A stretch of 64,000 nucleotides of DNA. Source: an uncultured Methanosarcinaceae archaeon (GTDB lineage Archaea; Halobacteriota; Methanosarcinia; Methanosarcinales; Methanosarcinaceae). This document shows, piece by piece, positions 9,349 through 52,472 of this stretch. The first letter of the stretch is position 1. The number at the start of each line of letters is the position of its first letter. Position numbers and translations under genes: made by a program. The stretch lies in contig CAWHXP010000008.1 of assembly GCA_963833425.1 (NCBI GenBank), forward strand, positions 372,578-436,577, in the 5' to 3' direction. The notes under the pieces are model-generated. The model made no database searches and was not told the origin of the DNA. It saw only the letters and a program-made list of their open reading frames with translations.

Positions 9349-9375
9349 TGAACTTAATTTGCAAGTTATAAATAC

Positions 9376-9918
9376 TCAATCCATACATACTGTATGCAGT
9401 GTTTCGTATATGGGAGATTCTGGAGTCAGTATGCTTTTCTTTAAAAGAATTTTATTCACTTTCATGTTACCCACTTGCACATCTTTGCATTCTTTAACGG
9501 TATTTATAAAAGCTTTTTTCTGGTCTCTATTGAGGGATTTCACCCTGGCAAGAGTAGCATGGGCTTTAAATTCTCTATTATCTTTTTCAAATTTAAAAGG
9601 TTTCAGTAGATTTTCAACATCTTCATGCAAAATTTTGAATTTTCCGGCTGCTTTCAACCAGAGAACTTTAGGGTTTGAAGGATTAGGAAAAACCCCCAAT
9701 CCCCCAATTATCGCTTCGAAAGGTTCACAAGTAATGGAATCAAGCGCTGAAGAAATTATTGAAATCCTTGATTCATCCACATCCCCCAAGAACTTCAAAG
9801 TGATGTGAACGATTTCAGGCTCAACAAACTTAAGATTAAAGCAAGAGAATCGGTCCTGGAGTTCCCTGATCTTTTCCCTAAAACTAGGATCTAGTTCAAC
9901 TGCTATGAATGTTCTCAT
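9376..9918 (-). CDS. thpR: RNA 2',3'-cyclic phosphodiesterase (2H family, LigT/ThpR)
   Basis: MRTFIAVE start; two HxT motifs (HITLKFLG, HATLAR). Confidence 0.93.
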   Translation of the reverse strand: MRTFIAVELDPSFREKIRELQDRFSCFNLKFVEPEIVHITLKFLGDVDESRISIISSALDSITCEPFEAIIGGLGVFPNPSNPKVLWLKAAGKFKILHEDVENLLKPFKFEKDNREFKAHATLARVKSLNRDQKKAFINTVKECKDVQVGNMKVNKILLKKSILTPESPIYETLHTVCMD

Positions 9919-9978
9919 CAAAATTTTCACCAATTTAAATAATAAAATCATCAGAAAAATCTTCCTATAAGGTACTTT

Positions 9979-13290: not shown

Positions 13291-14423
13291 GAGGATTTCG
13301 ATAAACTTCGGATTTTATTTCTTAGCAGTAATTTCTCATATCTTCCCCTCAATTTCTCTATTTAATCCCTCTTTTTGGCTTTACTTATCCTCAATTCTTT
13401 GATTTTAAAGATAGCTTCCGCTATCTTCAATATACTTTTTTTATTTTCAATGTCCTCAATTGATGGAGATTATAACAAAAAGCCGTACACAACATTTTTA
13501 GATTTACTATTTTAACAGTAGTAACAAAAACTCTTCCTGCTTTGAAAATTTCTTTCGTTACTGAATAAACTCCTTCTACTGGAACTCTTTTTGAGCTAAT
13601 TCTCTTATTTCTTAATATATCCTTTATTCCCAGCGTATGTCCTTTGACCGCTCTTTTCATTGTTGCATTATACCCTTTCGTTTTTGCTCCAAAGTATCCT
13701 CTGTCCTTATAAACCACTTCATTTTCCTCTGTCAAATCTACATACGAATCATGTACTGACGCAGTTGTTGTTTGAATCTTCTGATCAGCTCATAATCTCT
13801 GTCTATTATATTATGAAGCTTATATCCAAAGTGAGACTTACCTCCCTTCTTTGTCCATGTTCCTTCTCTGCTTCTTCTTGTTTTTGCCTCATCTCTCTGC
13901 TTTTGCATGTCCTGGATCTGAATGGATAAAAGTAGCATCCTGAATCATTCCCTGCTTTATCTGTAAACCCAGAGCAGCAAGTTGGCTTTGCAACTTTCCC
14001 CATATTTTCTTTGAAATTCTCGATAATTTTCTCCCTAAATAGCCATACAGTAGTACTGTCAGATACGTATTCCAGAAATCCAAGGAATTTCCTAAAAGAA
14101 ATTCGATCTATACACTGTTTCTCAAGTTCAAAATCAGAGAGCCCATGCCATTGTTGTAAAACAAGCATTTTGAACATCACAATGACATCAGTTTCAGGTC
14201 TCCCTCATGAAACGGTTTTGTTAATACACATAGACTCAAGAATAATACGAAACGTTTTCCAATCAATTAAGGAAGCAATTTCAGCAAGCTTATCTCCAAC
14301 AGATTCAAGACGTTTATACTCTTCTTTAAGAGCAAAATCAATAAGAGTTTTCATGAATATAAATAAATATTTACAAATTTAAAGTCAACCATGCTCAAGA
14401 GAATGGAATTTATCTAAATTCTC
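13291..14423 (-). mobile_element. IS5-family insertion sequence, frameshifted transposase (copy 1)
   Basis: Terminal IR GAGGATTTCGATAAAC / ATTTATCTAAATTCTC, flanks TATA/TAGA; MFKMLVLQQWHGLSD, QDATFI, KSHFGYKLH and DRGYFG spread over several frames. Confidence 0.9.
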
Positions 14424-23656: not shown

Positions 23657-24427
23657 ATGCAAATTAAGGGAATAGCCAGTGATACTCTCAATTTTATACT
23701 CGAAACCAGCAAGTCCGTGGCCCCGGAGGAGTTTGCCGGTCTTTTACAGGAAAATAACGGCATTATCACTGAAGTGCTTGTATTGCCTGGTACCGAATCC
23801 AGTGAACAAAACGCAGTTCTAAAGCTTTTCATGATGCCGAATATCAAAGCTGTAGGCTCGATTCACAGCCATCCAGGTCCAAACCGCAAACCTTCAAAAG
23901 TAGATCTACACCTTTTTTCAAAATCTGGGAATTGCCACATAATAGTGGGTTATCCTTATAATAAGCAGAGCTGGACATGTTACGATAATGAAGGAAATAT
24001 TAGGGAACTCCAAGTGCTTGATGTGAAGTTTGATAATTTCGAAGAAGCTAACCTTGACGGGGCTAACTTTGAAGGAGCTAACCTTAAAGGAACTGATTTT
24101 AAGAAAGCTAATCTTGAAGAAGCTGACCTTGAAGGAACTGATCTTGTAGGGGCTAACCTTGAAGGAACTGATCTTATAGGAGCTAACCTTTCAGGAGCTA
24201 ACCTTTCAGGAGCTAACCTTAAAAGGGCTAACCTTAAAAGAGCTAACCTTTTAGGAGCTAACCTTAAAGGAGCTGATTTTGAAGGGGCTAACCTTAAAGG
24301 AGTCAAAGAATTAACAATTGACCAACTTTCAAAAGTTAAAACACTTTATAACGCAAAATTGAACGACGGGCTTCTCATGTCCCTGACAGAAAAATATCCT
24401 ATCCTTTTTGAAAAACCAAAGCTATAG
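23657..24427 (+). CDS. JAB/MPN+ (JAMM) metalloprotease fused to a pentapeptide-repeat domain
   Basis: EEFAG...HSHPGPNRKPSKVD JAMM motif, followed by about 18 A(N/D)LxG/x pentapeptides and an LTIDQLSKVKTLYNAKL cap. Confidence 0.88.
   Translation: MQIKGIASDTLNFILETSKSVAPEEFAGLLQENNGIITEVLVLPGTESSEQNAVLKLFMMPNIKAVGSIHSHPGPNRKPSKVDLHLFSKSGNCHIIVGYPYNKQSWTCYDNEGNIRELQVLDVKFDNFEEANLDGANFEGANLKGTDFKKANLEEADLEGTDLVGANLEGTDLIGANLSGANLSGANLKRANLKRANLLGANLKGADFEGANLKGVKELTIDQLSKVKTLYNAKLNDGLLMSLTEKYPILFEKPKL
24042..24302 (+). repeat. 15-bp tandem repeats (GCTAACCTTNNNGGA) coding pentapeptide repeats
   Basis: Read directly from the sequence. Confidence 0.9.
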
Positions 24428-26334: not shown

Positions 26335-26840
26335 CTTAAACCCTATCGATAAGAACTGAACTCATTATTAACTGTATATGTTTTAATTTTTTGATATACA
26401 GTAACTATTTGACCGGGGTAAAACATTATCAACAGCCGTATTAAAAAATTTCAATAAGCCAGTTTCAGTGGGTTGACTTTAACTCCGTCAAGTATCCAAC
26501 ATCTTCTTGCGGGGATGTAAACTCTCCAGGGAACCGTTATCAACTAACTTATTTATATTTTATTTACTTCTGCACTATGAATTGGAACTACGTCATGAAA
26601 AGCTCAGTGTGCCCCTAAAATAAGATCTCATATTAATTTAAGTGTAAAATATATGAAAAATTTCCTCTTAGACAAAGATATTACCAACTATTTGAAATAA
26701 GTATGTTTCGAAATTGGTAGAACTTACTGTTTTGGGTTCGATGAAACGATAATGATGTTGATTAAATACAGTTTTTAGTTGATTCTAAACTAACATAAAT
26801 AACTATATTGTTCATCTAGGATCAATTCTATTAAGTTAGT

Positions 26841-27976
26841 ATGAGTAATTCAAAGATCTTGAAAGATTACTTAAGGAAGTGTCAAGCAGATGGACTGACG
26901 GAAGAGACAATTGCAACTGCTGAATATACACTTATAAAGTTCATAGAATGGTGTGGAGATCGAGAATTAAAGGATTTTACTACAGACGATGTTTACGATT
27001 ATCTGGATTTTATAAATGCCTATACATACATCAAAGCTGGTAAGGCTGTTAAATACTCCCCTGGTACACAGCAACGAATTAGAACTGTTTTGAAAAAATT
27101 CTTGACCTTTATTAATAGTGATCTTGGAGCCGTAATAAAGTTGCGGAAGCTAAAAAATGGGAAAATCCCCGAAGATATTTTGACTCGCGAAGAAATTGAA
27201 AAATTAATTGATTCATGTCGAAGTAACAGAGATCGGGCTATAATTGCTACGTTTTATGAAAGCGGAGCTAGAAGGGGGGATTACTAACAGTTCAACTTAA
27301 ACATGTGACTTTTGACGAGAATGGGGCAATCCTCAAGATCCAAAAAGGGAAAACAGGAAGTCGAAGCGTTAGGCTTGTATTAGCTTCATCTTATCTAAAA
27401 CAGTGAATTGACACGCATCCATTAAAGAATGATCTTGATGCTTACTTATTCTGTTCGACAAATTCTCCTTTTGGAGTCATCACATTTGTAGGACTTGCAG
27501 ATCAACTACACAAAATAGCAAGTAGAGCAGGTATCCAACAAAAAAGGGTTTACCCACATGCTTTTAGACATGCCAGAGCAACTCACTTAGCAGAACAATT
27601 GCCTGAACAACTTTTAAAAGAATATTTAGGTTGGACTAAATCAAGTAATAAGGCGAGTGTATATGTGCATATGTCAGGGCGAGATGTGGATAATGCTATA
27701 CTTAAATTGCATGGAATCGAGACTGAAGAATCTCACAAAAAATTCGCTGTTAATAAATGCCCACGTTGTAAGGAAATCAATCCAGAAAATGCTTTATTTT
27801 GCTTTAAATGTGGACTGCCACTTACGCAGGAAGCTTCAACAACTGTAGAATCTATAAAAACTGATTACTTACAGCTTGCAGATCTGGATGAAATCAGGGA
27901 AATGAAAAATACATTAAAGCAAGAGCTTGAAGAAATCTCAAAACTTAAGGAGACGATGCTCAAAGCTGGAAAATAA
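26841..27976 (+). pseudogene. Tyrosine integrase with C-terminal zinc ribbon; frameshift near 27280 and TGA at 27404
   Basis: RDRAIIATFYESGARRG(E)L, KGKTG, YPHAFRHARAT, YLGW, ASVYVH, CPRC...CFKCG. Confidence 0.9.
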
Positions 27977-28006
27977 ATTATATCTAATTGATAAGGGATT
28001 ATAATT

Positions 28007-29197
28007 TTAAAGAGTCCCTACTTTTGCTATACATTTTTCAAAGAAATGATCTAAAAAAACGTCATAATCTTCTGCTAGAGGCGACCAGTATTTGTCCGAC
28101 TTCTCATTCATTATATTAAAAAATTTACTATTTTCTTGCACGAATTCTTTTTCTTCGGTGGAAGCAGTTCCGTCTAGAATATCGCTCTGAAAGCAGTGGT
28201 CGAAAAGAAGCTCAATACTTATTATTTTCCTGTTCTGCTCAAAAGTTATTATTTGCAGTATTTCACGATACGTCTCTTTCCAATTTTCATCCACTAAGAT
28301 TCTGTTAAGTATCTCTTCAGATATCTTTTTTACCAAATTAGCCTGTTCGACTAGCATATCATTAGGTCTTTTCAATAACTCCAGATGCATTTCTTTAGGC
28401 ATGTTCAGAGCCATTACTTCAGATGCCATTTTAAATGAGATATTTTCTATCATTAATTTATAAAGTTCTTCAACTGATATTTCTTCGTATTCTATTGGCA
28501 ATGACCCTTCTACTATTTTCTGAAATGTTTCTTCCAACATTTCAATGTCTGCGGGTAATTTTAGAGATTTTTGACAAATCTCTGATTTCAGCGAATTGTT
28601 TATGCACTCACTATAAACCTCCAGCCAAATATTTGGGTTTGCTAAAATTCTTTTCATGAATTCAGTGTAAAGTTTACTAGTTGGACTTGCAATAGGTAAT
28701 AGGTGTGTCCAGAAAGTACCGCTTAGGGACATTTTATAAATTTCATCGGCTTTTGCATATAATGTTCCAACTTCATTTTTTAAGCACATGTCGAAAAAGG
28801 AAACGGATAGATACAACTGAATAAAGAATCTATTGGCATTAAGAGCTCCTGGAATCCAAGCTAACTGATCGCTGATCATATTTAAAGATTTTTTATATCG
28901 GTTTAATCGTATCTCAGGGAAATGAATTCTGATATTTTTTAAATTTTCAATTCTTTTTATGTCCCACCTATTAGCTAAGCCAGGCTTCCCTTGAATTTTT
29001 TCTATACTTGAATAAGGGCGGTATTGCAAGTCTTTCAGGTGTTTCTTTATATTCCCGTAATCTTTTATATCATATTCTCTCGCCAAAAATTCTCTTATTT
29101 TTGGCTCTGGGACAGCTCCATCACTGCTTATAATAAATTCAATTATCCCAGCTTTAACCTCATTCCATTTTAGATGATCTCCATGACTTCTTAGCAT
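28007..29197 (-). CDS. Hypothetical protein with probable N-terminal winged-helix domain (putative repressor)
   Basis: IIEFII...EPKIREFL...NIKKHLKDL N-terminus looks like a wHTH; divergent from the replication operon. Confidence 0.6.
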   Translation of the reverse strand: MLRSHGDHLKWNEVKAGIIEFIISSDGAVPEPKIREFLAREYDIKDYGNIKKHLKDLQYRPYSSIEKIQGKPGLANRWDIKRIENLKNIRIHFPEIRLNRYKKSLNMISDQLAWIPGALNANRFFIQLYLSVSFFDMCLKNEVGTLYAKADEIYKMSLSGTFWTHLLPIASPTSKLYTEFMKRILANPNIWLEVYSECINNSLKSEICQKSLKLPADIEMLEETFQKIVEGSLPIEYEEISVEELYKLMIENISFKMASEVMALNMPKEMHLELLKRPNDMLVEQANLVKKISEEILNRILVDENWKETYREILQIITFEQNRKIISIELLFDHCFQSDILDGTASTEEKEFVQENSKFFNIMNEKSDKYWSPLAEDYDVFLDHFFEKCIAKVGTL

Positions 29198-29337
29198 ATG
29201 CTATAAGATATGCTATAGGGTATAAAAAATTTATCTATCAATTTTTTTTTTAGGAAATATTTATCATTTTTTAAAATAACCATATGGTATTATTTTTTCT
29301 AAATCCTACATCCTTATATACAAAGTTAGCATATGCT
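29191..29337. promoter_or_regulatory. Divergent promoter region with palindromic CATATG-core boxes
   Basis: TAGCATATGCTA 29192-29203, half-site GATATGCTA 29207-29215, ACCATATGGT 29279-29288, TTAGCATATGCT 29326-29337. Confidence 0.6.
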
Positions 29338-29339
29338 TG

Positions 29340-29522
29340 ATGGTGACGAAAAGAAATTTTAATTTTGGAAAAAGAAAACTTCAGAAAGTAAGGTATTCCT
29401 TTTTAATTCCTTTGCCTGTTGATTGGGTCAACAGCATGGAAATTGGTAAAGGTAATTTGCTGGGAATTGAAATGCAAGAGGACTCTAGTTTAAAGATAAC
29501 CCCGGTTCCACAGGCCTGGTAA
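29340..29522 (+). CDS. AbrB/MazE/SpoVT-type small DNA-binding protein
   Basis: RKLQKV-YSFLIPLPVDWV-SMEI-KG-LL-IE-SSLKITP swapped-hairpin pattern. Confidence 0.75.
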   Translation: MVTKRNFNFGKRKLQKVRYSFLIPLPVDWVNSMEIGKGNLLGIEMQEDSSLKITPVPQAW

Positions 29523-29577
29523 GACTCTAAGGAACCAGGAGCGCAACACCAACCAACTAAAATAAGGAGATGTCGGC

Positions 29578-29739
29578 ATGAATAATATGACACCAAAAGA
29601 TATATCTTTTATCTCATGGGCGAAACAAACCTACACAAAACACCCTGAAATTTTGGACCACATGAGGAAGAGTACTGACCCATTAAAAAGGGCAATAGCA
29701 GTCCGAATTCTGAATAACGCAGGAGTAATTGAGCTTTAA
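29578..29739 (+). CDS. Small hypothetical protein (53 aa)
   Basis: AAGGAG SD upstream; open frame MNNMTPKDISF...NAGVIEL*; below the ORF-track cutoff. Confidence 0.5.
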   Translation: MNNMTPKDISFISWAKQTYTKHPEILDHMRKSTDPLKRAIAVRILNNAGVIEL

Positions 29740-29890
29740 AAAGAGAAACTGGGTATTGAAATTACCCGGAATCACACAAAGGGAAGGAAACCGACTGGAA
29801 AAGTCTTACTGTAGGTAATATCACTGTATCTTATTTTAATCCTTCTGTATGTGATTCTCTCTTCTTTTTGCCACTACGGGAGTTGAAAAC

Positions 29891-30091
29891 ATGTCATTCA
29901 ACCCGGTTGAGTTCTCCTGTCCACTTCGGTATACTTTATTTTATGTTTGGATGAAAGGAAAACAAATCCAGCTTGATCGAGATTACTATTACAAATCCAT
30001 TCTTTATGAAGCTTTCAATGATGTAAACCGGTTAATGTCCATATATGGGTTACACATTCTGCGTTTTCGAGGCTCAGGTGGTTCTAAATGA
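29891..30091 (+). CDS. Small hypothetical protein
   Basis: GGAG SD upstream; position in the operon between regulator and primase. Confidence 0.45.
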   Translation: MSFNPVEFSCPLRYTLFYVWMKGKQIQLDRDYYYKSILYEAFNDVNRLMSIYGLHILRFRGSGGSK

Positions 30092-30271
30092 CTGCTAGAA
30101 CTTTCATTAAACCTTGCAAAAAATAGCCTTCTACCTGTAGGATAAAACTTTGTTCAGAATATTACGAAGCTCGGGAAAATAATAATCTGCTTCTTAATAA
30201 CATTTAGGAGGGGATAACATACCCTCTTTTTATCCTGAAAATATTCCACAGGAAATGAAAGATATTCCTCA

Positions 30272-32647
30272 ATGGTTTTGTGGAAACTAGAAAAGAGAGA
30301 TGCGAATTTAACCAAAGTTCCTTGTCAAGTTGACGGCAAAAAAGCTGATACCACAAAATCTGAGACTTGGACCACTTATGAACTGGTATTCACATCGTAT
30401 GATTCTTCTATCTATGCAGGATTAGGGTTTGTTTTGACCAAAGAAACAGGATTCGTAGCAATCGATTTGGATCATGTGTTGCAGAATTCTATTTCCTCCG
30501 TAGACGGATGCACATCCAAAGAATGGGACAACGAAATTTTTGCTGAAATCCAAGACTTCAATTCATACGCTGAATTTTCACAGTCAGGAGAAGGAGTACA
30601 TATTTTCTGTAAAGGGACTATGCCAAAAGCAGGCCGAAAAAAGGGGACGCACGAAATGTACTGTGAAAACCGATTCTTTGCAATTACAGGTGATCACATA
30701 GATAAAATTCCCAAAACAGTAAACGAAGCCCAAGAATGTATTGATGATTACTATCAATTATGGTTTGAAGAATATGAGACCCCTAAAAATGGTGTGGATC
30801 TCAAATCTCCATCAATGACTGATGAAAAAATAATTCAACTGATAAGTTCTGCACAAAATAGTGAAAAATTCAGGAAGCTGCACTCAGGTGATACCAGTAA
30901 TTATCCTTCCACTTCGGAGGCAGACTTTGCTTACTGTCGACTATTGGCTTTCTATACACAGGACAAGAAACAAATTGACAAAATATACAGAACCTCGAAA
31001 CTTTACACTAAAAAATGGAATAGACGAGGAAAATATACCTTGGATAAAGTTGTGACAGGGCTGACTGAAGTTTACCTAAAAACAGAAACTGAAGACGAAA
31101 TTTTTTCTGCTGAAGAAATCAGTCTAGCAGAACTCAAAAATCTTAAAATGGATCCAAACAGTCGTAAAATGCCTAATTTAATGGACATACTGCCTGCTAA
31201 TCATTTCATTAACACAGTAACCGATTGGATGTCAGGACTTTCAGATACCTATTACGAGTATCAAGTCAGTACAGCGCTTTGGTTGCTCTCGGACCTGATT
31301 CAAGGAAAAGGGGCGCTCGTCATAAAGCAAGGCAAAATAAGACCTAATTTATACGTTCTACTTTTAGGATTATCAACTAAAAGCAGAAAATCCACTGCAG
31401 TAAACAAAATTGAACAAATTAGAGAAGCAGCTACATATACAGAATTGTACAATGACGAGCCAACTATAGAAGGTTATCTCGAAATGCTGGCTAGTAATCC
31501 AGTTCAGAGTTTTGTTTGTGACGAAGTGAGTGGACTTTTTGCAAAATATCACAAGAAGTATAATGAAGGAATTTTCGATCTAGATTGCAAAATTTATGAC
31601 GGAGCTTCGATCAGAAAAATTAAAGCTTCAGGTCGGAATAAAAGCCCAAAAGAGTATGTTATAAAGGATCCATACGTTACCCATCTTTACGCGACGACTC
31701 CTGACAAATTCACAACGGTAGTAGAGCTAGAAGATTTCTCTTGCGGGTGGGGATACAGATTCCTTTACGCATTTCCTACATATGCTAAAGATAGAATGGA
31801 TATCGAATTAGAAGATAATGAGAATATAGAGGCCTGGGGAAAAGTTCTAACTGCAGTTAAAACTCTTTATAACAGGTATTCAGAAACCGCTGATTTCAAA
31901 TTTGCAATCACAAAAGAAGCCTTAAAACTGTTCAATAAAATAAGTGCAGAACTAGAAGATGAAGGCGAAAAGATACAAAATGAATCATTAGATTCAGCTA
32001 TTGCAAGGGCAGAAGACAATATTTTAAAAATATCTATGCTTCTTGAAATTGGCAAAAAAGAGCCTTCTCATGAGATCACAGAGGATAGTATATCTATCGC
32101 TTCTCTTTTAGCCCTTGACTTTTTTCTGCCTTCATTTTCTCAAGTCATGGATAGAATACTCTCCGATATTAAAACTAACAAGATCGAGAAAGCAATCTCA
32201 GTAATTCGTAAAATGGGAGAAACATGTAATAGAGGCACACTTATTAAAAACGGCCATTTTACAGCAAAAGAAGGCGATGAAATTATTGAAGCAATGGTTA
32301 TAGGTTCAATTGTAGATGTAAAAAAAGTAAAAGAAACAAAATTAATTACATATATCTTAAAAAGTGATGCAAAAGTTGTCAATGTTCAATCCACAGAGCT
32401 CACAGGTTTGTTTATCAATCTTCGCAATGTTCGCAATCTTCGCAATCTTCGCACATACACTGTAGGTACAACTACCCTTGCGAAGATTGCGAAGATAGAT
32501 AATATACCTACATGTAGCGCGTTGCCGGAAGGATCTTCTAGTGTATGTGCGAACATTGCGAATATTGCGAACATCGAACAAAGCTTGTGTTCCAGTGTAG
32601 TCTCTGTAGAAGAAGCCGCTAGAATTCTAGAAGAGGAAGGGTTTTGA
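30272..32647 (+). CDS. NrS-1-type primase-polymerase (AEP) fused to a DUF3987-like P-loop helicase; N-terminal ~20 aa lost by a 1-nt deletion near 30273
   Basis: (PENIPQEMKDIPQW)VLWK...KVP, GLGFVL, AIDLD, YAEFSQSGEGVHI, EMY-ENRFF-ITG, STSEADF helical domain; PNLYVLLLG-ST-SRKST Walker A and DEVSG Walker B. Confidence 0.85.
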   Translation: MVLWKLEKRDANLTKVPCQVDGKKADTTKSETWTTYELVFTSYDSSIYAGLGFVLTKETGFVAIDLDHVLQNSISSVDGCTSKEWDNEIFAEIQDFNSYAEFSQSGEGVHIFCKGTMPKAGRKKGTHEMYCENRFFAITGDHIDKIPKTVNEAQECIDDYYQLWFEEYETPKNGVDLKSPSMTDEKIIQLISSAQNSEKFRKLHSGDTSNYPSTSEADFAYCRLLAFYTQDKKQIDKIYRTSKLYTKKWNRRGKYTLDKVVTGLTEVYLKTETEDEIFSAEEISLAELKNLKMDPNSRKMPNLMDILPANHFINTVTDWMSGLSDTYYEYQVSTALWLLSDLIQGKGALVIKQGKIRPNLYVLLLGLSTKSRKSTAVNKIEQIREAATYTELYNDEPTIEGYLEMLASNPVQSFVCDEVSGLFAKYHKKYNEGIFDLDCKIYDGASIRKIKASGRNKSPKEYVIKDPYVTHLYATTPDKFTTVVELEDFSCGWGYRFLYAFPTYAKDRMDIELEDNENIEAWGKVLTAVKTLYNRYSETADFKFAITKEALKLFNKISAELEDEGEKIQNESLDSAIARAEDNILKISMLLEIGKKEPSHEITEDSISIASLLALDFFLPSFSQVMDRILSDIKTNKIEKAISVIRKMGETCNRGTLIKNGHFTAKEGDEIIEAMVIGSIVDVKKVKETKLITYILKSDAKVVNVQSTELTGLFINLRNVRNLRNLRTYTVGTTTLAKIAKIDNIPTCSALPEGSSSVCANIANIANIEQSLCSSVVSVEEAARILEEEGF
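32416..32576. repeat. Iteron-like array: 9-bp CAAT(C/G)TTCG x4 forward, 2+3 inverted copies, ~37-bp inverted arms; candidate replication origin
   Basis: Arm 32425-32461 matches the reverse complement of 32540-32576 at 34/37 positions; internal palindrome CTACATGTAG. Confidence 0.8.
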
Positions 32648-34325
32648 ATGTCTCTTCTTTTCCTTGACATTGAAACCACAGGTTTAAATCCTCTCACTTC
32701 AGAACTTGTGACTTTGCAGTTATCGACTCTTTCCGGTAAGTCGATGATAATTAAAGATCCTGTGACCTTAGAAGCTCTTAAACCTAAACTTGAGAAAAAT
32801 TTAGTCGTAGGCCATAACATAAAATTCGACTCTAAATTCCTGAAATATCAGTATGGAATAACTCTGTACAATATTTACGATACCTTTATAGTAGAAATAG
32901 CAATCTCGGGGGGAAACTTGCTCGACGAAAAGGAGCATCACTCAAAGATCTAGTTTTTAAGTACTGTAGTGTCACTCTCGATAAGTCTGAACAGTGCAGA
33001 TTCAAGAAAGGTGAACAACTAACTGCCGAGCAGGAAAAGTATGCCCTTAATGACTTGAAATATCTTCCTGAAATTATGAAACAACAGCAAGCAAAAATAA
33101 CCTTGCTCGGCTTAGAAAATATAATTGATATTGAGATGAAATGTCTTCCTGCAGTAGTATGGTTAGAGCTTTCCGGTTTCCATGTGGACTTTGAGAAATT
33201 AGAAGAAATAAAAGCTACAATTCAAAATAAGTACCAAGAGACTGGAGCCTTCCTCCAAAAAGAACTTATTACTTTTGATAAACAATGTCAGTTAGATGGC
33301 ACGTTTGTTTCTAATGAATTGAATTTAAGCAGTCCTGAACAGCTGAAACAGGCTCTAAGGAACAAAGGTTATGACATTAATGGAACAGACGTAAAAACAA
33401 GAGCAAAGTATGTTAATGATTCTATATTTCAGAATTTATCAGATTTTAAAGAAGCTGAGACACTTCTGAAAATGTTCATTAAACCTTTACCTTCTTACAT
33501 CAATTCTAAAACTCAGCGGATATATTCTGATTTTTGGCAATATGGTGCTACATCCGGGCGGTTCACTTGCGGAAAACCTAACTTACAACAGCAGCCAAGT
33601 AAATTTAAAGATTGGAGAAAGATTTTTACTCCTGAACGTGGAAACAAGCTAATAGTAGCTGATTATTCCCAAATCGAGCTCAGAATTATAGTTCAACTAG
33701 CTAAAGATAAAAAATATATTCGTGCTTATAATGAAGACCTTGGCCTGCACAAAAATACAGCTGCAGTCATGTTTAAAGTGCCTGTGGATCAGGTTACTAA
33801 ACAGCAAAGAGGGATAGCAAAATCAGTTAATTTTGGTTTGAATTATGGTTATGGGTAAAAGGTCTTTAAAAGAGAAACTGAAACTAGAAACGGGTATCGA
33901 TTATACGGAAGATGAGGTAGCAAAGCTTATCGAAAACTTCAAAAACTTATACCCTGATGTAACAAATTATCTTAAAACAATAAGTCAAAAAGGCTTCAAT
34001 CGACTCGAAGTTAGAAATAAAGCAGGAAGACTTTTCAAATTTGATTAAACCTTCGGCAGAAACAGAAGAGAAATACAATGTGCAGAAAGGTAACATTGAG
34101 CGTGAATGCAAGAATTTTCCGGTTCAAGGTCTTTGTGCTGATATGCTGAAAATAGCAATGGGTAACCTTTTCTTAATCCTTGAGCCTAGAGGGGTGAAAC
34201 TCGTTAATTGTGTCCATGATGAACTTGTTTTTGAGTGCAAGACAGAAGAAGCGGAAGAAGTAGCAACAATTGTAAAAACTGAAATGGAGAAAGCTGGAGC
34301 ACTATTTTTGAAAGACCTACCATGA
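32648..34325 (+). pseudogene. Family A DNA polymerase (3'-5' exonuclease + polymerase, no 5' nuclease), split by 3 frameshifts and truncated
   Basis: ExoI LDIETTG, ExoII GHNIKFD, ExoIII YALND, TSGRF...PNLQQQP, motif A ADYSQIELR, motif B R-IAKSVNFGLNYG, NFPVQG-CAD, motif C VHDEL. Confidence 0.92.
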
Positions 34326-34653
34326 AACAAGAAAGCGATCCAGAAATTAGTTGAGCCAAAAAGAGCACAAAAGCGAAAAATTAGATTTAATATAAGTTGA
34401 AGGAAAATAAAGATAGTTAGAACAATTAAATGCAAAATAATGAATAGAGGTATCCGACAGGTTGCGTCAACAACCTGCCGGTGCCCAAGTCACCAAAAAT
34501 TAAAAATGTTATTTGATGAAAACAGGCATTGTATTCAATATATTGATTACTGTTTTCATTGAAATAGATTCCCCTTCGGGGGCTATTTGAGTCTCCTGGG
34601 CTATTCTGACCGACTTAATTTATATTTTAAAAAAATAATTAAGAGGTAATTAG

Positions 34654-34971
34654 ATGATAATTCAAAAATATTTTAATGATATGGCAACGGAAGATCAAAA
34701 AGATTTAACTGTTCAATTCGAAGAAAAGTTAAAATCGCTGTCGGATGAGTATAACCTTACAATAATTAATATAAATCTCGAATACATAGTAAACTTGCTT
34801 GATTATTTACCAGAAATATTAGACAGTTTTAAGCCTGAAACGAATCCAAAACTTCAGTCTGCATTGATGAAAGTGAGCATGTTAAAGGAGTTAATTCCGA
34901 AAAGCGCAGAGGAATTTGAATCTTTGGATATTTTAAAAGTGTTGCTCGAATGTCACACAGATATATTCTAA
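34654..34971 (+). CDS. Hypothetical protein
   Basis: GAGGT SD, 105-aa ORF, no motif recognised. Confidence 0.5.
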   Translation: MIIQKYFNDMATEDQKDLTVQFEEKLKSLSDEYNLTIININLEYIVNLLDYLPEILDSFKPETNPKLQSALMKVSMLKELIPKSAEEFESLDILKVLLECHTDIF

Positions 34972-35399
34972 GATGGGAAATCTGTGGAAATCGAGACGTT
35001 GGAAGATGGTACATTGAGAATCTCGGCAGCGGATAATTAAAAGAATTTAATAAAATACAACAAAAATTGAGATATATGATCCCAGGACAGCATGGTCCTT
35101 GTCCTAGGCGATTAGGGCCGTTATTTTGAATAATGATATCAGTATCAATAGCTATCTCCTTCAGAATATATTATTGATAATGATTCTAGTGTTTATGGGT
35201 TCTTTTTGTCTCTTATAATTCAAGAGAGGTCATTTATATGATATATTTTAAATACATTCAAAGTGGTATTAATAATTTCTCCCACGGTTTTGGCAGCACG
35301 AGGTCTCATATTGCCGACACTTCATTTGTCACATCTATAGATGGTTACAAAGACAATGGACCTTGTCAAATGAATATTTTTTAATATACGATAAATCTA

Positions 35400-36590
35400 T
35401 TGGGGGATTTCTTGTTGGATCTGATTATTGATGACGAATTTCAGGTATTGATTCCACCATTGTCTTCCAACGAATACCAAACTCTTAAAGAAAATATTCT
35501 AAAGGATGGTTGTAGGGATTCACTTGTATTATGGAATAAAATCCTGGTAGATGGGTATAACCGTTATAAAATATGCACAGAACATAATCTCAAATTTAAT
35601 GTTGTTGAAAAGCCTTTTGATTCACGGAATGATGTTTGTATCTGGATTATCCAAAATCAACTCGGGAAACGCAATTTACAGTATTTCGCTAGGGCAGAAT
35701 TAGGAGTAACATTAAAACATTTTTTCCAAGAAAAAGGTTTAGAAAACAAAAGAAATGCTGGGAAATTTTATGGTATAAGTGATCTGAACTCTGTAAAAAA
35801 GCTTTTGCCGAATTCAGCAAAACCTATTTTAGACAGTGGTACAAAAATAAATGCACGAGAAGAAGTAGCAAAGATTGCGGGTGTAGGTCATGATACCATT
35901 TCAAAAGTAGAAAAAATTTTAGAAATAGCATCACCCGAAGAAATCGAGAAAGCAAGATCTGGGGAAGTTAGTGTCAATCAAATGTATAGTACAATTAAAC
36001 GAAAAGAAAAAGAAGAGCAAAGGGATCAACATGTAAAAGAAAATATTGAAAAAGTTAAGAATGGAAAGCCCATGGGGGAAATCGATGGTCTATTTCAAAC
36101 TATTGTAATTGATCCACCTTGGGATTGGGGAGATGAGAACGACAATAATCAATTTGGAAGAGCAAAACCAGATTATGCAACCATGCCATTTGAAGAAATA
36201 CTAAAATTTCCTGTAATTAGATTGGCAGATGAAAATTGTCATTTGTATTTGTGGATTACAAATCGGAGTTTTCCGAAGGGATTTGAATTAATTGAAGCAT
36301 GGGGATTCAGATATATAACCTGCCTTACTTGGGTAAAACCGAGTATCGGGCTGGGAAACTATTTTAGGGGAAGTACTGAGCAAGTACTCTTTGCAATAAA
36401 AGTGCATATGCCATTAAAAAGGCATGATGTAGGTACTCATTTTGAAGCTCCAAGAGGAGAAAAACATAGCGATAAACCTAATAAAGTTTATGATCTGATT
36501 GAAAATTGTAGTTATGGGCCTTATTTAGAAATCTTCAGTCGGCATCAACGAGATGGTTGGATTATGTGGGGGGCTGATGCCCAATGTTAA
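35400..36590 (+). CDS. ParB/Spo0J-like N-terminal domain fused to an MT-A70-family N6-adenine methyltransferase
   Basis: IPPLS-EY-L-ENIL-DG-RD, LVDGYNRY, NQLGKRNL, HTH (VAKIAGVGHDT); MT-A70 IVIDPPW, HLYLWITN, WGFRY...TWVK, HSDKP, YLEIFSR. Confidence 0.88.
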   Translation: MGDFLLDLIIDDEFQVLIPPLSSNEYQTLKENILKDGCRDSLVLWNKILVDGYNRYKICTEHNLKFNVVEKPFDSRNDVCIWIIQNQLGKRNLQYFARAELGVTLKHFFQEKGLENKRNAGKFYGISDLNSVKKLLPNSAKPILDSGTKINAREEVAKIAGVGHDTISKVEKILEIASPEEIEKARSGEVSVNQMYSTIKRKEKEEQRDQHVKENIEKVKNGKPMGEIDGLFQTIVIDPPWDWGDENDNNQFGRAKPDYATMPFEEILKFPVIRLADENCHLYLWITNRSFPKGFELIEAWGFRYITCLTWVKPSIGLGNYFRGSTEQVLFAIKVHMPLKRHDVGTHFEAPRGEKHSDKPNKVYDLIENCSYGPYLEIFSRHQRDGWIMWGADAQC

Positions 36591-37191
36591 TGATTTCAAA
36601 ACTAAATAAGAATTCAGGCATGATCAATTGTCTAACAAAATCAGAGATGATCAAAGGCAAAAATGGTAAAACTATTTTTAACAACAAATGGCGAAAGTTC
36701 GATGAGCAAACGAATGCTGCTGGCGTGAAGTGTCTAGGTTTTGCAAAGTAAAGGGAAGAATACTAATTTCTTCTTTCTATTTTTTGGAAATTATTATTAT
36801 GGGCATCATAGTTCAGATATTCCAACATATGCGTGATCTACGCAGTGCGTACAATATTATAAAGAATAAGCTGCCAGGGTCTAGTGTTCTCTCTACTGGA
36901 ATCTCACTTATTTAAAGCATTATACAATCACGTTTGAACTTGAGATGCCCATATAACTTTTCATTAGAGTTATCCTGAAGCTGCCATTTTCCTGTGAGTT
37001 CAAATTCGTCTACTAAGCTGAACTCCCCGCTTATATCGATTGAAAAAGTCAATACTGTATAATTTCATTTGGATATGGAGAGTTGTATCAAATCTATTAT
37101 ATTTTATAGGATAACCTAAAGCTCATGAGTACTCCTAAGCATAGATATCTTAAAGCTTTTGTGTTATTGCCCTTTTTATTTTATCTTTTTA

Positions 37192-37899
37192 TCACACAAG
37201 CAGCACTGCTATAAGACCGCTCAAGAAGACGCCATCGAAGGTTCCAGCGCCGCCGATACTTACAATAGGTGCTCCAAGATCGCGAATCTTATTTAGGTTC
37301 ATTAGGTCGGAGTCTATCAATGTCCCAAGAGTTCCTCCTACATAGGCCAGGATGAAAAGGTACTGATTGGGCGCATTGAACATATCGGTCATGGTAAGAG
37401 CTGCCAAGGCTGCCGTAAGAGGTGGGAGCAAAGCTGGAGTTACTATTCCAAGGCCCTTGACTAACTTTGCAGTCCTATTCATCACTATAGCCACGAAAAT
37501 CACACATGCGATTACGTAAGGCAGCGCTGCCGAAAACTTGTAGAGAAGTGCAATTGATATCAGAGTAGGTATCACAGCCCCTCCCAAGTTGATTGCCAGG
37601 ACTGTATCTCTACTCATTTCTCCAACTACAGGTATCCTGTAGGTTACACCGAGGACATGGATATATTCCCCCTGAGCAATAGGCTCTCTAGATTTCAGGT
37701 TTGTGGCTGGCATGTTGATAGCACTACCAACGAGAGAGTCAAGCAGCACAATAAGAGCATGCTCCCAGGAGAAGCCAATTCTGGTAAAAGCAGTCCTTGC
37801 CAGGTCCAAGAACAGTAGGCTCACTTCGATAAATAGCAGAAATGCCATAAACAGCATGAATAACAGGCTTACTGGAATGTAGAACAACCGACGATCCAT
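37192..37899 (-). CDS. DUF1614 membrane protein
   Basis: LAINLGGAVIP, GTLGTLI-DL-NL, SIGGAGTFDGVFLSG. Confidence 0.85.
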   Translation of the reverse strand: MDRRLFYIPVSLLFMLFMAFLLFIEVSLLFLDLARTAFTRIGFSWEHALIVLLDSLVGSAINMPATNLKSREPIAQGEYIHVLGVTYRIPVVGEMSRDTVLAINLGGAVIPTLISIALLYKFSAALPYVIACVIFVAIVMNRTAKLVKGLGIVTPALLPPLTAALAALTMTDMFNAPNQYLFILAYVGGTLGTLIDSDLMNLNKIRDLGAPIVSIGGAGTFDGVFLSGLIAVLLV

Positions 37900-38054
37900 A
37901 AGGCATTTTCCGTTTTTATAGTATAAAATTATTGTAATGGAAAGACTAGAATTTATTGATAATGATTATTCGTTAGTACATTATTATATGATTGATGTTT
38001 TGAAACATTTAAATGTTAGAAAATTTCTTAGTGTCTATTTAGTCTACTAAACTT

Positions 38055-38400
38055 TCTTTTATCTGTTATTTTGTTTATAAAAACCCGGATCTTGGAAGGC
38101 TCTAGCGTATATTAATTACTCCCAGAAGGATTTCTTCATAGCTGCTATCTTTCAATGATCAGGACATGAGAGATGCCTATGACTCTGGTATCTTATCTTG
38201 CTTTTGCTAAACAGGCAGATGCAGTGTTACCGGAAGCTACTAAAACCAGTAATATAGAAATAAAGAATCTCTTCAAGACTTGTGTTTTTGGTGTTCAGCA
38301 TGGACTAGGGCGGAGTCTCTTGCGTTAAAAATTGATAAATCAACTCCATACGCAATCGAACTATTGAGCCATTATAAGCAGAATTATAAAAAATATAGAG
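38055..38400 (+). pseudogene. Relic of a second, distinct family A DNA polymerase
   Basis: Spliced reading KALAYINYSQKDFFIAA...NDQDMRDAYDSG..YLAFAKQADAVLPEATKT...NLFKTCVFGVQHGLG.ESLA spans PolA motifs A to B. Confidence 0.7.
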
Positions 38401-38851
38401 CATGTTCTGAAGCGAAGTGGATATCTAACAGCTCGATCGAATATCTCATTTAAAATACAGGAAAATTTAGTAATCATAATTAAATTTAATGTATTATTAT
38501 GAATTATAACATCTGAAACCGTTTCATGCCAATAAATAAATTACCAAATTTATATTATTCTAATGTAATAAAAGTATATAAAAAATATCTCAGACTAACT
38601 TACCGTGTTGTGTAGGTCAAAACATGGAGGTTTAAAATAGGTCCAAAACTGAATGATCCTGGGCTACCAGGTAGACTTTTATAAAAAGTTTGATGAATAT
38701 ACCTTACTAAAAACAATAGCTCAAAGTGGCTGAATGGCTCTTATTTGATTCGACGCATATAAATCCACTTGCATGCCGAACAAAAATAACTTAATATTAA
38801 ATAAAAGCTTAGCTAATATTAAGTATAAAAAATAAAAAAACGGTGTTATCG

Positions 38852-39273
38852 ATGGCAAGACCTAGTAAATTAACTCCAAAAATACAAAAAAGAATCGGTG
38901 AAAATATTGCGCTCGGATTGACTTATAGCTTGCTGCTTCGGCAGCCGGCATAACATACAAGACATTTAATGAATGGATGAACAAGGGGAAGACAGAGAAA
39001 TCTGGTAAACATTATCAATTTTTTAACTATATCCAAAAATGCAATGCAGACGGAGCTAGGAAACTTCTTGAGCGGTTAAATGATGCAGCTGCAACTGGAA
39101 ATTGTCAAGTTTGTATGTGGGTGCTCGAACGGCGTTTCAGTGACGAATTTGGAAAGCGGGTCTATAGGAAAACAAATGTTATTTCAGAGAGTATAAGTGA
39201 AAATGTTGAACTAACAATCAAGGACGGAGATCAAATTAGAAAACAAATTTTAGCGAAGTTTGATGGGAGTTAG
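38852..39273 (+). pseudogene. Terminase small subunit-like HTH protein, frameshift near 38930
   Basis: MARPSKLTP...AGITYKTFNEWM...WVLERRFSDEFG pattern of phage TerS-like proteins. Confidence 0.65.
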
Positions 39274-40174
39274 GAAAGTTACGAGTTATCAGCTGATTAT
39301 GATTTTTATCTGAAACTGAGGTATTTTTAACAGAAAGTTCTTCACTACTAATTTGATCCTATGGTCAATTGTAGTCAGAGTTACCAATATCGCCACCAAA
39401 GCTTACTTTTTTCTGCATTCTCCTGAAGCAGTTTAATGTTTAGCATGCTATTTTTCTGGATTAAACTTTGAATATGCAAAGCCTATTTGTGCATATTTTC
39501 ATTTAACTTTTCTATCTTCTTATCCTTTGTATGTAGCTCTCGTCCTTAATGCTTATCGAACAAAAAAGTTATTGGATCCAAATTTTTAGCTTGCCTATTC
39601 TGGCCTGTTGCAGTTCATCATTATCTTTGACTTCATAACTTGAATTCTCACTATAATGCTACTCGGCATGTAAGAGAAGAGTGATTCTTTCTGCTCCGAT
39701 CAAATTTTATGAGCAAAAAAAGCCTTTTTACTCTTCTTTACTAAAATTAATCCAAGTAATCTATTTTTGTGCCTAGATTTTATTATAATCTATTTATTTA
39801 GATCTGTAAATTAACAAAAATCATAACAGCTGTGGGAACACTAACTAAATGACGATTTTTTAATTTTCTTATTTAATTTCTATTTTTTGAAAGAGGGCAT
39901 ACCCTCTCCATTGCTATCGAATGAAAAAACCTGCCTTACGACTTTCCGTATCTTATAAATGATTTATATTCACGATTATACGATTAGATTTTGATCAGAA
40001 ATTAATCGATGTTAAAAAGCTAACAACTTTTGTGATTATAAATCTATAACTATAATAATTTATACAAAAAGTTTAAATCGTTACTACCCTCTAAAAATGT
40101 AGATAAACATTCCAGATCTTGGGAATAATGGTCAAATTTTACTGGCTAATAATATAGAAAAGGAATTGAAATAC

Positions 40175-40300
40175 ATGATCAATAAACATAAATTGTATTC
40201 GATAGCTTTAATTTCAGCAACTACGATTTTTATGCTTGTAAGTATAGCAACCTCAGCACCATTTGCATATATTACAAACTATGGCTACAATGTTGCTTGA
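40175..40300 (+). pseudogene. N-terminal remnant of a YVTN-type beta-propeller surface protein
   Basis: Signal peptide followed by APFAYITN, then a stop. Confidence 0.6.
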
Positions 40301-51343: not shown

Positions 51344-52472
51344 GAGGATTTCGATAAACTTCGGATTTTATTTCTTAGCAGGAATTTCTCAGATTTTCCC
51401 TCAATTTCTCTATTTAATTCCTCTTTTTGGCTTTACTTATTCTCAATTCTTTGATTTTAAAGATAGCTTCCGCTATTTTCAACATACTTTTTTTATTTTC
51501 AATTTCCTCAATTGATGGAGATTATAACAAAAAGCCGTACACAACATTTTTAGATTTACTCTTTTAACAGTAGTAACAAAAACTCTTCCTGCTTTGAAAA
51601 TTTCTTTCGTTACTGAATTGATTCTTTCCCGTTGAACTCTTTTTGAGCTAATTCTCTTATTTTTTAATATATCCTTTATTCCCAGCGAATGTCCTTTGAC
51701 TGCTCTTTTCATTGTTGCATTATACCTTTCGTTTTTGCTCCAAAGTATCCTCTGTCCCTATAAACCACTTCATTTTCCTCTGTCACATCTACATACGAAT
51801 CATGTACTGACGCAGTTGTTGTTTTGAATCTTCTGATTAGCTCATAATCTCTGTCTATTATATTATGAAGCTTATATCCAAAATGAGACTTACCTCCCTT
51901 TTTTGTCCATGTTCCGTCTCTGCTTCTTCTTGTTTTTGCCTCATCTCTCTGCTTTCGCATGTCCTGGATCTGAATGGATAAAAGTAGCATCCTGAATCAT
52001 TCCCTGCTTTATCTGTAAACCCAGAGTATCAAGTTGGCCTTGCAACTTTCCCCATATTTTCTTTGAAATTTTCGATAATTCTCTCCCTAAATAGCTATAC
52101 AGTAGTACTGTCAGGTATGTATTCAGGAAATCCAAGGAATTTCCTAAAAAAATTCGATCTATACACACTTTCTCAAGTTCAAAATCAGAGAGCCCATGCC
52201 ATTGTTGTAAAACAAGCATTTTGAACATCACAATGACATCAGTTTCAGGGCCCCCTCCTGAAACTGTTTTGTTAATATACATAGACTCAAGAATAACACG
52301 AAACGTTTTCCATCAATTAAGGAATCAATTTCAGCAAGCTTATCTCCAATAGATTCAAGACGTTTATACTCTTCTTTAATAGCAAAATCAGTAAGAGTTT
52401 TCATGAATATACATAAATATTGACAAATTTAAAGTCAACCATGCTCAAGAGCATGAGTTTATCGAAATTCTC
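51344..52472 (-). mobile_element. IS5-family insertion sequence, frameshifted transposase (copy 2)
   Basis: GAGGATTTCGATAAAC...GTTTATCGAAATTCTC with TATA duplication; high identity to 13291-14423. Confidence 0.92.

Follow-up and report, generated by a model that had tools for sequence, protein, structure and literature searches.

What kind of genetic element leaves behind an integrase, a replication apparatus of its own and the small subunit of a viral terminase, with no gene for a virus particle beside them? The question is raised by positions 26841-39273 of a 64-kb stretch of DNA (the window) from an uncultured archaeon of the Methanosarcinaceae, an interval that an initial annotation took for a satellite or integrative element laid out like the phage-inducible chromosomal islands (PICIs) of bacteria. 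We lean, modestly, towards the view that the locus is a dead, recombined pile-up from a family of small integrative elements whose members are satellites packaged by helper viruses through their terminase small subunit (TerS). The descriptive part of this reading, a decayed mosaic of 7-12 kb integrative elements with TerS and without structural genes, is well supported by comparison of sequences; for the functional part, the layout, the identity of TerS and the analogy with bacterial PICIs suggest packaging by a helper, replication from iterons and control by a regulator pair. Judged from the copies compared, an intact member is predicted to consist of a Zn-ribbon tyrosine integrase, a divergent pair of a large winged helix-turn-helix (wHTH) protein and an AbrB-type regulator, an exchangeable replication module and a far-end TerS of Sf6 type, usually followed by a convergent gene for a ribbon-helix-helix (RHH)/coiled-coil protein; capsid, portal and tail genes appear to be absent, as usually is the large terminase subunit (TerL). 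In what follows genomes are labelled G000 (that of the window, which groups with methanogen genomes in genome comparison) to G140, contigs of G000 are labelled C1, C2, C5, C6 and so on, and loci or contigs from other genomes, metagenomes and a viral collection carry labels from L026 to L154.

The answer turns on the gene at the right-hand end. In the window it is a TerS pseudogene (38852-39273, + strand) with profile matches over positions 1-49 and 24-144 and stops inside: 27 good N-terminal codons run from 38852, a frameshift or deletion follows near 38932, and a 98-amino-acid (aa) open reading frame (ORF) at 38977-39273, matching phrog_4102 at 1.2e-9, is the tail of the same gene. The residues lost at 38932 continue in metagenome contigs, and the region is 88% identical in nucleotides to that of the metagenome contig L080. 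Full-length members of the family match phrog_4102 (terminase small subunit) at 4.9e-25 over positions 9-139 of 166, although no NCBIfam match was found, and a profile of 78 diverse members matches Sf6 gp1 (4dyc, 3hef) at E 0.006 over residues 2-112. An AlphaFold (AF2) model from a diverse alignment reached a pLDDT of 88, replacing a first fold from a shallow alignment that was unusable (pLDDT 57); its five best Foldseek matches are all Sf6 TerS, weak ones at probability 0.89-0.97, E 0.14-0.5 and TM 0.39-0.45. Homologues in the viral collection, at 30-43% identity, lie directly upstream of Terminase_6N/6C genes (L027, L028, L030, L040), and downstream of TerS-TerL come portal, MuF, prohead protease and HK97 capsid genes in L030, a portal-MuF fusion in L028 and a Mu-type portal in L040. 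On these comparisons the identification as TerS is sound, the genomic context of the viral homologues being decisive. The family protein thus resembles Sf6 gp1-type TerS in full-length profile and in fold, but the element gene stands without TerL: in neither the window nor the element clade is TerS directly upstream of terL. Against 1.84 billion representative sequences the TerS profile found 8260 matches at E<=1e-3 and just 14 at E<=1e-30, and the element clade is narrow, falling essentially into a single cluster at 50% identity. The virus L026/L027 has a primase-polymerase (PrimPol) of NrS-1 type just upstream of TerS-TerL, and L028 has a ParB-methylase there; elements and tailed viruses therefore have replication and TerS modules in common.

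Genes for a particle are missing around this TerS. Neither the interval, in which 22 ORFs were scanned with Pfam and 14 with PHROGs, nor 30 further ORFs of the window contain a large terminase, portal, capsid or tail gene, as the initial annotation had already remarked of the interval; the genes that it listed (integrase, divergent regulators, small ORFs, PrimPol-helicase with an internal iteron array, family A polymerase, ParB-MT-A70 methyltransferase and TerS-like gene) are also present where and in the order that it had placed them, by Pfam and PHROG scans and iteron analysis. It had passed over a DUF1614 gene, the fragments of a second polymerase, the start of TerS at 38852 and the full extent of family homology, from 26621 to about 39630-39808. 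The locus does not hold the combination of TerL, portal and HK97 capsid by which an integrated tailed provirus (Caudoviricetes) is recognized. In the whole assembly of G000 (4.07 Mb, 80% complete) Terminase_6N (PF03237) and HK97 capsid (PF05065) had no match, control families having matched, and tblastn with viral TerL, portal, MuF, protease and capsid queries recovered only a scrap of TerL at C2:103862-104417.

TerS itself is abundant in this genome, with 32 matches at about 27 separate places, and seven copies (C18, C21, C5:159740, C10:94992, C10:36169, C9:52793 and C6:142762) are open over their full length. Three types of TerS-terminated element can be told apart, of 7.3 kb, of 10 kb and of the window type. 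An intact 7.3-kb element at C18:595-7914 carries an integrase, a 226-aa wHTH-like protein on the - strand, an AbrB protein (PF04014), a 190-aa ORF, a family A polymerase (PolA) of 584 aa, a 106-aa wHTH-like protein, a 96-aa ORF and a TerS of 140 aa; the flanks on C1 and C6 are 98-99% like those of C18 and may be one locus assembled repeatedly, and C21 is a separate copy. The 10-kb element at C5:151003-161065 has an integrase of 403 aa, small ORFs, a putative 204-aa Prim-Pol (called by eye), a 387-aa ORF recognized by its P-loop motif, small ORFs including putative wHTH proteins and a TerS of 149 aa; a 132-aa ORF, the one ORF of this element scanned against the family library, had no family match. 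The same type occurs on C10, C9 and C20 with 90-98% nucleotide identity over 5-kb blocks, and identity of that order over kilobases means that the 10-kb unit spread recently. The supposition that the decaying copy of the window might have intact relatives is thus borne out by the C18 and C5 elements and by L080, whose polymerase is intact; in the window the integrase, polymerase and TerS are pseudogenes, and the PrimPol and methyltransferase frames are open. To the left of the 10-kb element, at C5:150040-150954 on the - strand, four short ORFs look by eye like one P-loop ATPase (GTGKT) in pieces; as a guess, this could be a disrupted integration target.

The arrangement recurs in other genomes, in a second genus and in metagenome loci, as the initial annotation had expected of a genuine element. 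Among 121 genomes of the family searched at E<=1e-5, 15 (G000 included) have a TerS match, the other 14 with one to three each. Of five other-species loci, four have an integrase within 8 kb upstream of TerS and on the same strand, and one has it downstream on the opposite strand; the ORFs scanned at the five include no TerL, portal or capsid family. G110 and G140 carry an integrase (47-49% identical), the large regulator, AbrB, the 53-aa ORF described below, a DUF927 primase-helicase and TerS within about 8 kb, inserted directly after pyrF; G136 shares this integrase module at pyrF, its PrimPol and TerS forming a pair in opposite orientation; in G129 an archaeal-type integrase is located 2 kb upstream of TerS; and in G076, of the second genus, integrase, DUF5906 helicase, TerS, small ORFs and a TIR gene precede host genes. 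The pyrF-adjacent element is present in three species, and three others have pyrF without these genes behind it. A metagenome scan with TerS yielded 483 relatives; the 80 best, with 65-88% aa identity, were retrieved. Among these 80, viral TerL, portal, MuF, protease and capsid queries matched none of 38 listed loci of at least 5 kb, and a TerL-sized gene follows TerS at none of the 29 loci having at least 2 kb there; the largest ORFs downstream are of host type (glycoside hydrolase, TPP enzyme, histidine kinases, STAND NTPase, helicase and similar). The proposition that homologous loci always include capsid, terL or tail genes, which would have made the locus a deleted provirus, thus fails at 29 metagenome and five other-species loci alike, and the recurring order equally contradicts the notion that the genes lack synteny elsewhere. 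Where at least 5 kb upstream of TerS is available (24 loci), about 16 have a replication gene in the same orientation and none has a structural family; these replication genes are of at least six kinds, namely NrS-1 PrimPol with PolA, PolA alone, Prim-Pol, D5_N/DUF5906, DUF927 and DnaG-type Toprim. The region after pyrF is a variable hot spot in all genomes compared, and in two species the pyrF-adjacent elements are followed by genes with a BrxB match and a 1143-aa ATPase (L065:13063-17947, L067:14514-19400). In the second-genus element the TIR-domain gene (L069:12702-13268), between TerS and host genes, is possibly defence cargo.

The right end is equally recurrent. Typically TerS is followed after about 115 nt by a convergent RHH/coiled-coil gene and then by host genes; the protein has an RHH-like N-terminus, a coiled coil of variable length and a near-invariant C-terminus, ...QTLINQKAIEAPGxKKPWWRFW, and 18 of 19 ORFs extracted downstream of TerS end in ...IEAPGxKKPWWRFW (for example L081:10534-11160 and L086:9362-9850). 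The window retains the last 52 codons of this gene (39384-39539, - strand; tblastn 67% over 52 aa). The PWWRFW motif is absent from 39 viral loci and five other-species loci, and in the viral collection the RHH/coiled-coil profile found a single contig, L150, where the gene is convergent to TerS-TerL. The protein has no family match above coiled-coil noise; a weak, sub-threshold match of the coiled coil to Phage_scaffold is taken as an artefact. When both edges were tested beyond the ends of the interval, family homology on this side faded at about 39630-39808. Just there, one RNA-library contig passes straight from 39563 to 40159 with few differences, the shorter side of the joint being 173 letters long, from which it follows that the 595 bases at 39564-40158 are absent in a close relative. 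At 40136-40297 lies a short repeat (about 100-160 nt), spread over the contigs of the genome in more than 25 copies of 72-85% identity and possibly a miniature transposable element.

At the left end, homology to the same-genome copies on C6, C1 and C18 begins at 26621 (blastn, 88%), so that 26621-26840 upstream of the integrase belongs to the family. About 250 nt at and just outside this edge (26487-26733) are repeated at 67-73% identity on C15, C9 and C6. The integrase, a tyrosine integrase with a C-terminal Zn ribbon and coiled coil (26841-27976, + strand), is a pseudogene in two adjoining pieces, 26841-27287 and 27599-27976; Phage_int_SAM_4 (PF13495) and phrog_1 matches cover its N-terminal half, and Zn-ribbon matches lie in the C-terminal half. 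Translation places a frameshift near 27279 and an in-frame TGA at 27404-27406, where intact paralogues have a residue, and contigs of four public peat runs, 90-95% identical, have one base more than the window at 27279. The gene is 90-97% identical in aa to other copies in its own genome. Integrase genes of the archaeal SSV type split into halves at the two element ends upon integration. Unlike these, the halves in the window are adjacent and parted by point damage, and integrated copies elsewhere have a whole integrase gene at one end (403 aa in C5, 395 aa in L065).

Next to the integrase stands the regulator pair. A 396-aa ORF (28007-29197, - strand), divergent from the AbrB gene, has homologues of 29-42% identity at the same position in other copies and other species; it has no Pfam, PHROG or NCBIfam match, the sole family signal for its type is a weak LexA_DNA_bind (wHTH) match in the 226-aa paralogue, and an atlas search gave scores of 0.85, leads only. 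Its sequence and position make it a candidate for the master regulator; the N-terminus would be a winged helix, and the large remainder belongs to no known family. The AbrB/SpoVT (MazE-fold) small regulator is an open frame of 61 aa (29337-29522, + strand), 43% identical in tblastn to the 82-aa protein of C18, which matches PF04014 at 2.3e-6. Two conserved small ORFs follow on the + strand, of 53 aa (29578-29739) and 66 aa (29891-30091), both with homologues of 50-83% identity that are placed alike in further copies, in other species and in metagenome loci. An integrase at the end with a divergent regulator pair is found in the window and likewise in C18, L065, L067 and L139.

The replication module begins with a 791-aa open frame (30272-32647, + strand) for an NrS-1-type PrimPol fused to a DUF3987 helicase-like domain (PF22763 at 1.9e-13, PF13148 at 3.2e-16, phrog_1829 at 1.3e-60). 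Primase PHROGs cover residues 2-320 and PF22763, the NrS-1 helix bundle (HBD), residues 215-268, which is the succession of an archaeo-eukaryotic-type (AEP) primase-polymerase and PF22763 that defines NrS-1-type PrimPols. The frame starts about 18 codons downstream of the start in an 899-aa homologue; the protein is 48% identical to that of L080 and 40% to a viral PrimPol located upstream of TerS-TerL, has no NCBIfam match, and its gene is a single copy in the genome. Within the 3' end of the gene lies an iteron cluster (32412-32574): 4.2 copies of the 9-nt unit CAATCTTCG occupy 32416-32453, inverted ones lie at 32478-32496 and 32548-32574, and the 35-nt arms are 94% complementary. The window thus has its own primase-helicase with adjacent iterons, and the cluster is a putative replication origin. 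A family A DNA polymerase (3'-5' exonuclease and polymerase; 32648-34325, + strand) follows as a pseudogene whose pieces match PF01612 and PF00476. It lies in four frame segments relative to the intact 571-aa homologue of L080, to which it is 84-85% identical in aa and 88.8% in nucleotides over 32600-34324, and single-base indels at 32907, 33849 and 34045 separate it from public peat contigs.

Between polymerase and TerS the locus departs from any single element. L080, a contig of 8255 nt with the regulator pair, PrimPol, intact polymerase, three small ORFs and TerS, is 82% identical to the window in nucleotides over 29349-31074 and 88% over 38783-39808, but its polymerase and TerS are 1.56 kb apart, against 4.46 kb in the window. 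First in the additional stretch is a 105-aa ORF (34654-34971, + strand; nucleotide homology over 34879-35382) that is 41-49% identical in tblastn to copies on C5, C9, C10 and C20; its homologues belong to the early region of the second element type (for example C5), whose integrase is only 29% identical. Next is an open frame for a ParB-like/MT-A70 DNA methyltransferase of 396 aa (35400-36590, + strand; PF05063 at 1.1e-21, phrog_359 at 2.3e-50, weak ParB PHROGs, no NCBIfam match), followed by two small ORFs (36584-36915, + strand); methyltransferase and small ORF are 87% identical in nucleotides to L092, in which regulators flank them on one side and a Prim-Pol gene on the other. At 38066-38402 (+ strand), three pieces matching residues 327-440 of the C18 polymerase at 56-67% (tblastn) are scraps of a different family A polymerase, the 584-aa type of the 7.3-kb element, and a conserved stretch at 38547-38857, upstream of TerS, has no open frame in the window.

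Between methyltransferase and TerS there is also a gene for a DUF1614 membrane protein (37192-37899, - strand; PF07758 at 1.2e-52). It is the only copy in the genome, and 17 of 18 other genomes of the genus have the gene. In the four examined it is located 1.5-3 kb from homologues of the window genes at 8401-9951; here it is about 27 kb from those genes, and the native spot beside them is empty. The protein is 49-54% identical to its homologues in the genus, which share 69-94% among themselves, whereas two neighbouring host proteins used as controls are not outliers (66-73% to the others, which are mutually 69-79% identical). The GC content of the gene is 0.41, host-like, against 0.32-0.36 in its flanks. 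It is either a foreign cargo copy replacing the native gene or a fast-diverging host gene relocated by inter-element recombination. From these comparisons the stretch from 34.3 to 38.8 kb is a mosaic of pieces of two other element types and the divergent DUF1614 gene, and because foreign pieces fill a stretch that is compact in L080, the locus is a recombined heap on one L080-type element. The initial annotation was accordingly right about a PICI-like layout with TerS, which recurs, and not about a single element, the interval being a mosaic of several. A joint of 36401 to 38783 in one public-run contig was discarded, one side having only 25 letters.

Window-like sequence in public runs amounts to small shares only (<=0.12), all from assembled contigs and from peat or wetland samples; the comparison, at 90% likeness and read only where contigs cover the window, reports relatives of the window strain and not the strain itself. 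RNA-library contigs, 90-95% identical, span the integrase, PrimPol, methyltransferase and TerS regions, which is a hint only.

PICIs, including the Staphylococcus aureus pathogenicity islands (SaPIs), have an integrase at one end, divergent regulators, a primase-helicase with an iteron origin, terS at the far end and no structural genes, within about 7-15 kb. The present family resembles them in each of these features and in size. It differs in its archaeal host, PICIs being bacterial, in the family A polymerase that some members add, and in replication modules of archaeal-virus types (NrS-1 PrimPol, D5_N/DUF5906, DUF927); in general searches, with no direct PICI comparison run, the best matches of replication genes and TerS were archaeal-type viral contigs and PHROGs and not named PICI proteins. 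On this analogy the family would be PICI-like by layout and not PICI by descent. If its members behave as bacterial PICIs do, an element would lie integrated and repressed until infection by, or induction of, a tailed helper led to its excision through the integrase; it would then replicate from its own origin by its own primase-helicase (with the polymerase, where present), its TerS would recruit the large terminase of the helper to element DNA, and the element would leave in particles made by the helper. The window copy itself is no longer capable of such a cycle, its integrase, polymerase and TerS being broken.

Several results weigh against helper-packaged satellites. The window copy is a mosaic, and its present gene order is therefore not a functional design; in the same genome most other TerS copies carry stops and most solo copies are broken. 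The closest viral TerS (L026/L027) is 41-44% identical over residues 2-91 only, with an unlike C-terminal part, which makes that virus an unlikely cognate helper, the C-terminal part of TerS being the one that contacts TerL in known systems. The G129 element at pyrF has a 91%-identical integrase and no TerS of the present family. No helper virus was identified, and since a simple repeat scan of the assembly turned up no CRISPR array, there is no spacer evidence. Nor did the searches for attachment sites, an empty site and circular forms, which had been suggested as checks, succeed: no direct repeat of at least 12 nt was found between the ends of the window, C18, C5 or C10 copies; at pyrF homology among seven genomes ends about 170 nt after the gene in all pairs, unoccupied ones included, so that the comparison placed the left junction alone; and no circular or particle-borne form was seen, nor any excision joint in public-run contigs. 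The single circular candidate, L126, was an artefact: its 94-nt terminal overlap falls in a gene for a repetitive protein, inside a tandem repeat. The window has no tRNA gene, and 20000-44000 gave no Rfam match.

A further group of adverse points concerns TerL. Four contigs of the viral collection (L150, L152, L153 and L154, the last three reached via the TerL of L150) are TerL-bearing relatives. L152 joins a polymerase end 85% identical in aa to that of the window, in its visible part, to two ORFs, TerS and TerL, its TerS being 36% identical to the element clade, and in L153 and L154 primase-type genes precede TerS and TerL. Scraps of TerL occur as 72 aa in L111 and as a C-terminal piece at the C2 locus. 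The history therefore includes reduction from proviruses, and a simple relic could lie behind some of the loci with TerS alone; on sequence grounds TerS-only elements probably descend from virus-like ancestors by loss.

The competitor that fares best under this evidence, rather unlikely in our estimation though deserving of weight, supposes helper-independent, plasmid-like integrative elements, which would persist through integration and spread by other routes; TerS would have been exapted in them to bind DNA, for instance in controlling excision, in partition or in transcription. Their self-replication modules are complete and accompanied by an integrase, no excisionase was recognized, TerS lies at the element end adjoining an RHH-type gene, and some members are named 'transposase' in one source; the unlike C-terminal third of TerS and the lack of helper and particle evidence also fit such elements. 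However, the viral TerS match spans the oligomerization helices as well as the helix-turn-helix, TerS is the most conserved gene (65-88% aa in the best 80 of 483 loci) across elements with differing integrases and replication modules, and the TerS+TerL relatives tie the module to packaging.

A second possibility is that each locus is a tailed provirus minus its structural half and the window copy a chance heap of relics. The genome is decaying, with numerous pseudogenes and TerS copies that are broken, the window copy can be shown to be a heap of fragments, TerL scraps persist, L152 joins the window polymerase type to TerS-TerL, and viral contigs and elements have PrimPol, ParB-methylase and TerS modules in common. 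Independent deletions would nevertheless not be expected to yield the same right end in 18 of 19 extracted cases. Several places carry near-identical 10-kb units, compact and with the integrase, replication and TerS frames open; TerL follows TerS at none of the metagenome and other-species loci counted above, and portal and capsid genes are lacking even in the relatives that have TerL, over the 1.3-6 kb beyond it (L150, L152 and L154, short contigs), where instead a reversed ParB-methylase fragment, an integrase fragment, an acyltransferase or the RHH/coiled-coil gene is found. We regard this account as improbable. That the loci are domesticated anti-virus islands, where the host would use retained TerS decoys, perhaps along with the RHH/coiled-coil protein, to disrupt the packaging of infecting tailed viruses, is very improbable: it could explain the expansion of TerS to 32 matches here against one to three in the 14 other positive genomes, would parallel the interference of bacterial satellites with helper packaging and has defence-type genes near some elements (TIR in L069, BrxB near L065, STAND NTPase in L097) in its favour, but most solo TerS copies have stops or frameshifts and so are not maintained, and the intact copies are those still linked to integrase and replication genes.

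Helper-packaged satellites therefore remain the reading that we prefer, and they can be set beside satellites already described. The capsid-forming PICIs (cf-PICIs) are satellites with more of the packaging machinery, as the available part of a preprint describes them (10.1101/2025.02.15.638363); L150 and L152-L154 likewise carry TerS with TerL, beside the same kinds of replication genes, but, unlike cf-PICIs, these short contigs show neither capsid nor portal nor connector genes within the 1.3-6 kb that follow TerL. In the same portion of that preprint, pSSVx/pSSVi and haloarchaeal SRCEs parasitize spindle-shaped viruses and combine a plasmid-type replication module with one or two helper morphogenesis genes, an AAA+ ATPase and/or a spindle capsid protein (10.1101/2025.02.15.638363). 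As far as that text describes them, they have in common with the present family an archaeal host and a replication module joined to a helper-type morphogenesis gene, whereas the present elements are integrative and have TerS instead, which implies tailed (HK97-type) helpers. Marine virion-encapsidated integrative elements and tycheposons, likened here by the descriptions available to us, are also small and metagenomic, with integrase, replication genes and sometimes terS, in bacterial hosts.

By the available text of the preprint, pSSVi and pSSVx were the only archaeal satellites described before its own spindle-virus satellites (10.1101/2025.02.15.638363, February 2025). No satellite of a tailed archaeal virus was found in the accessible text of the literature searched (including PMC4158269, PMC9796341, PMC13573593 and PMC12934983; subscription papers, supplements and a 2023 methanogen-virus compendium lay outside its scope), so the family may be the first known, an earlier description being possible. 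A bolder proposal, which we entertain while leaning slightly against it, is that these are true satellites of tailed archaeal viruses and the first PICI-like system in Archaea, a large and modular family of peat methanogens, with the TerS-only and TerS+TerL grades recording stepwise reduction and the PWWRFW protein interfering with or reshaping helper assembly. In bacteria, satellites of tailed viruses shape gene flow and virus defence. Provirus-mining pipelines that require hallmark genes (TerL, capsid, portal), as outlined in the accessible text of PMC13573593, would likely discard such elements. A family of hundreds in peat methanogens would offer a testable entry to conflict between virus, satellite and host in methanogens, and would supply Methanosarcina genetics with compact modules that replicate themselves and integrate. 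Although a wreck itself, the window copy points to a large, coherent and testable family.

Some features of the rest of the window may be recorded. Upstream of the element, a prokaryotic JAB/MPN domain is fused to pentapeptide repeats (23657-24427, + strand), and a pentapeptide-repeat protein is also found beside the G129 TerS (L066:8599-9741). Fragments of DUF772-type transposase genes at 13806-14180 and 51941-52282 (both - strand) and the long non-coding gaps hint at a genome in which decayed mobile DNA is plentiful. At 59974-61381 (- strand), adjoining ORFs for a STAND NTPase (nSTAND1) and a SIR2-like protein, both apparently short, form a defence-type pair.

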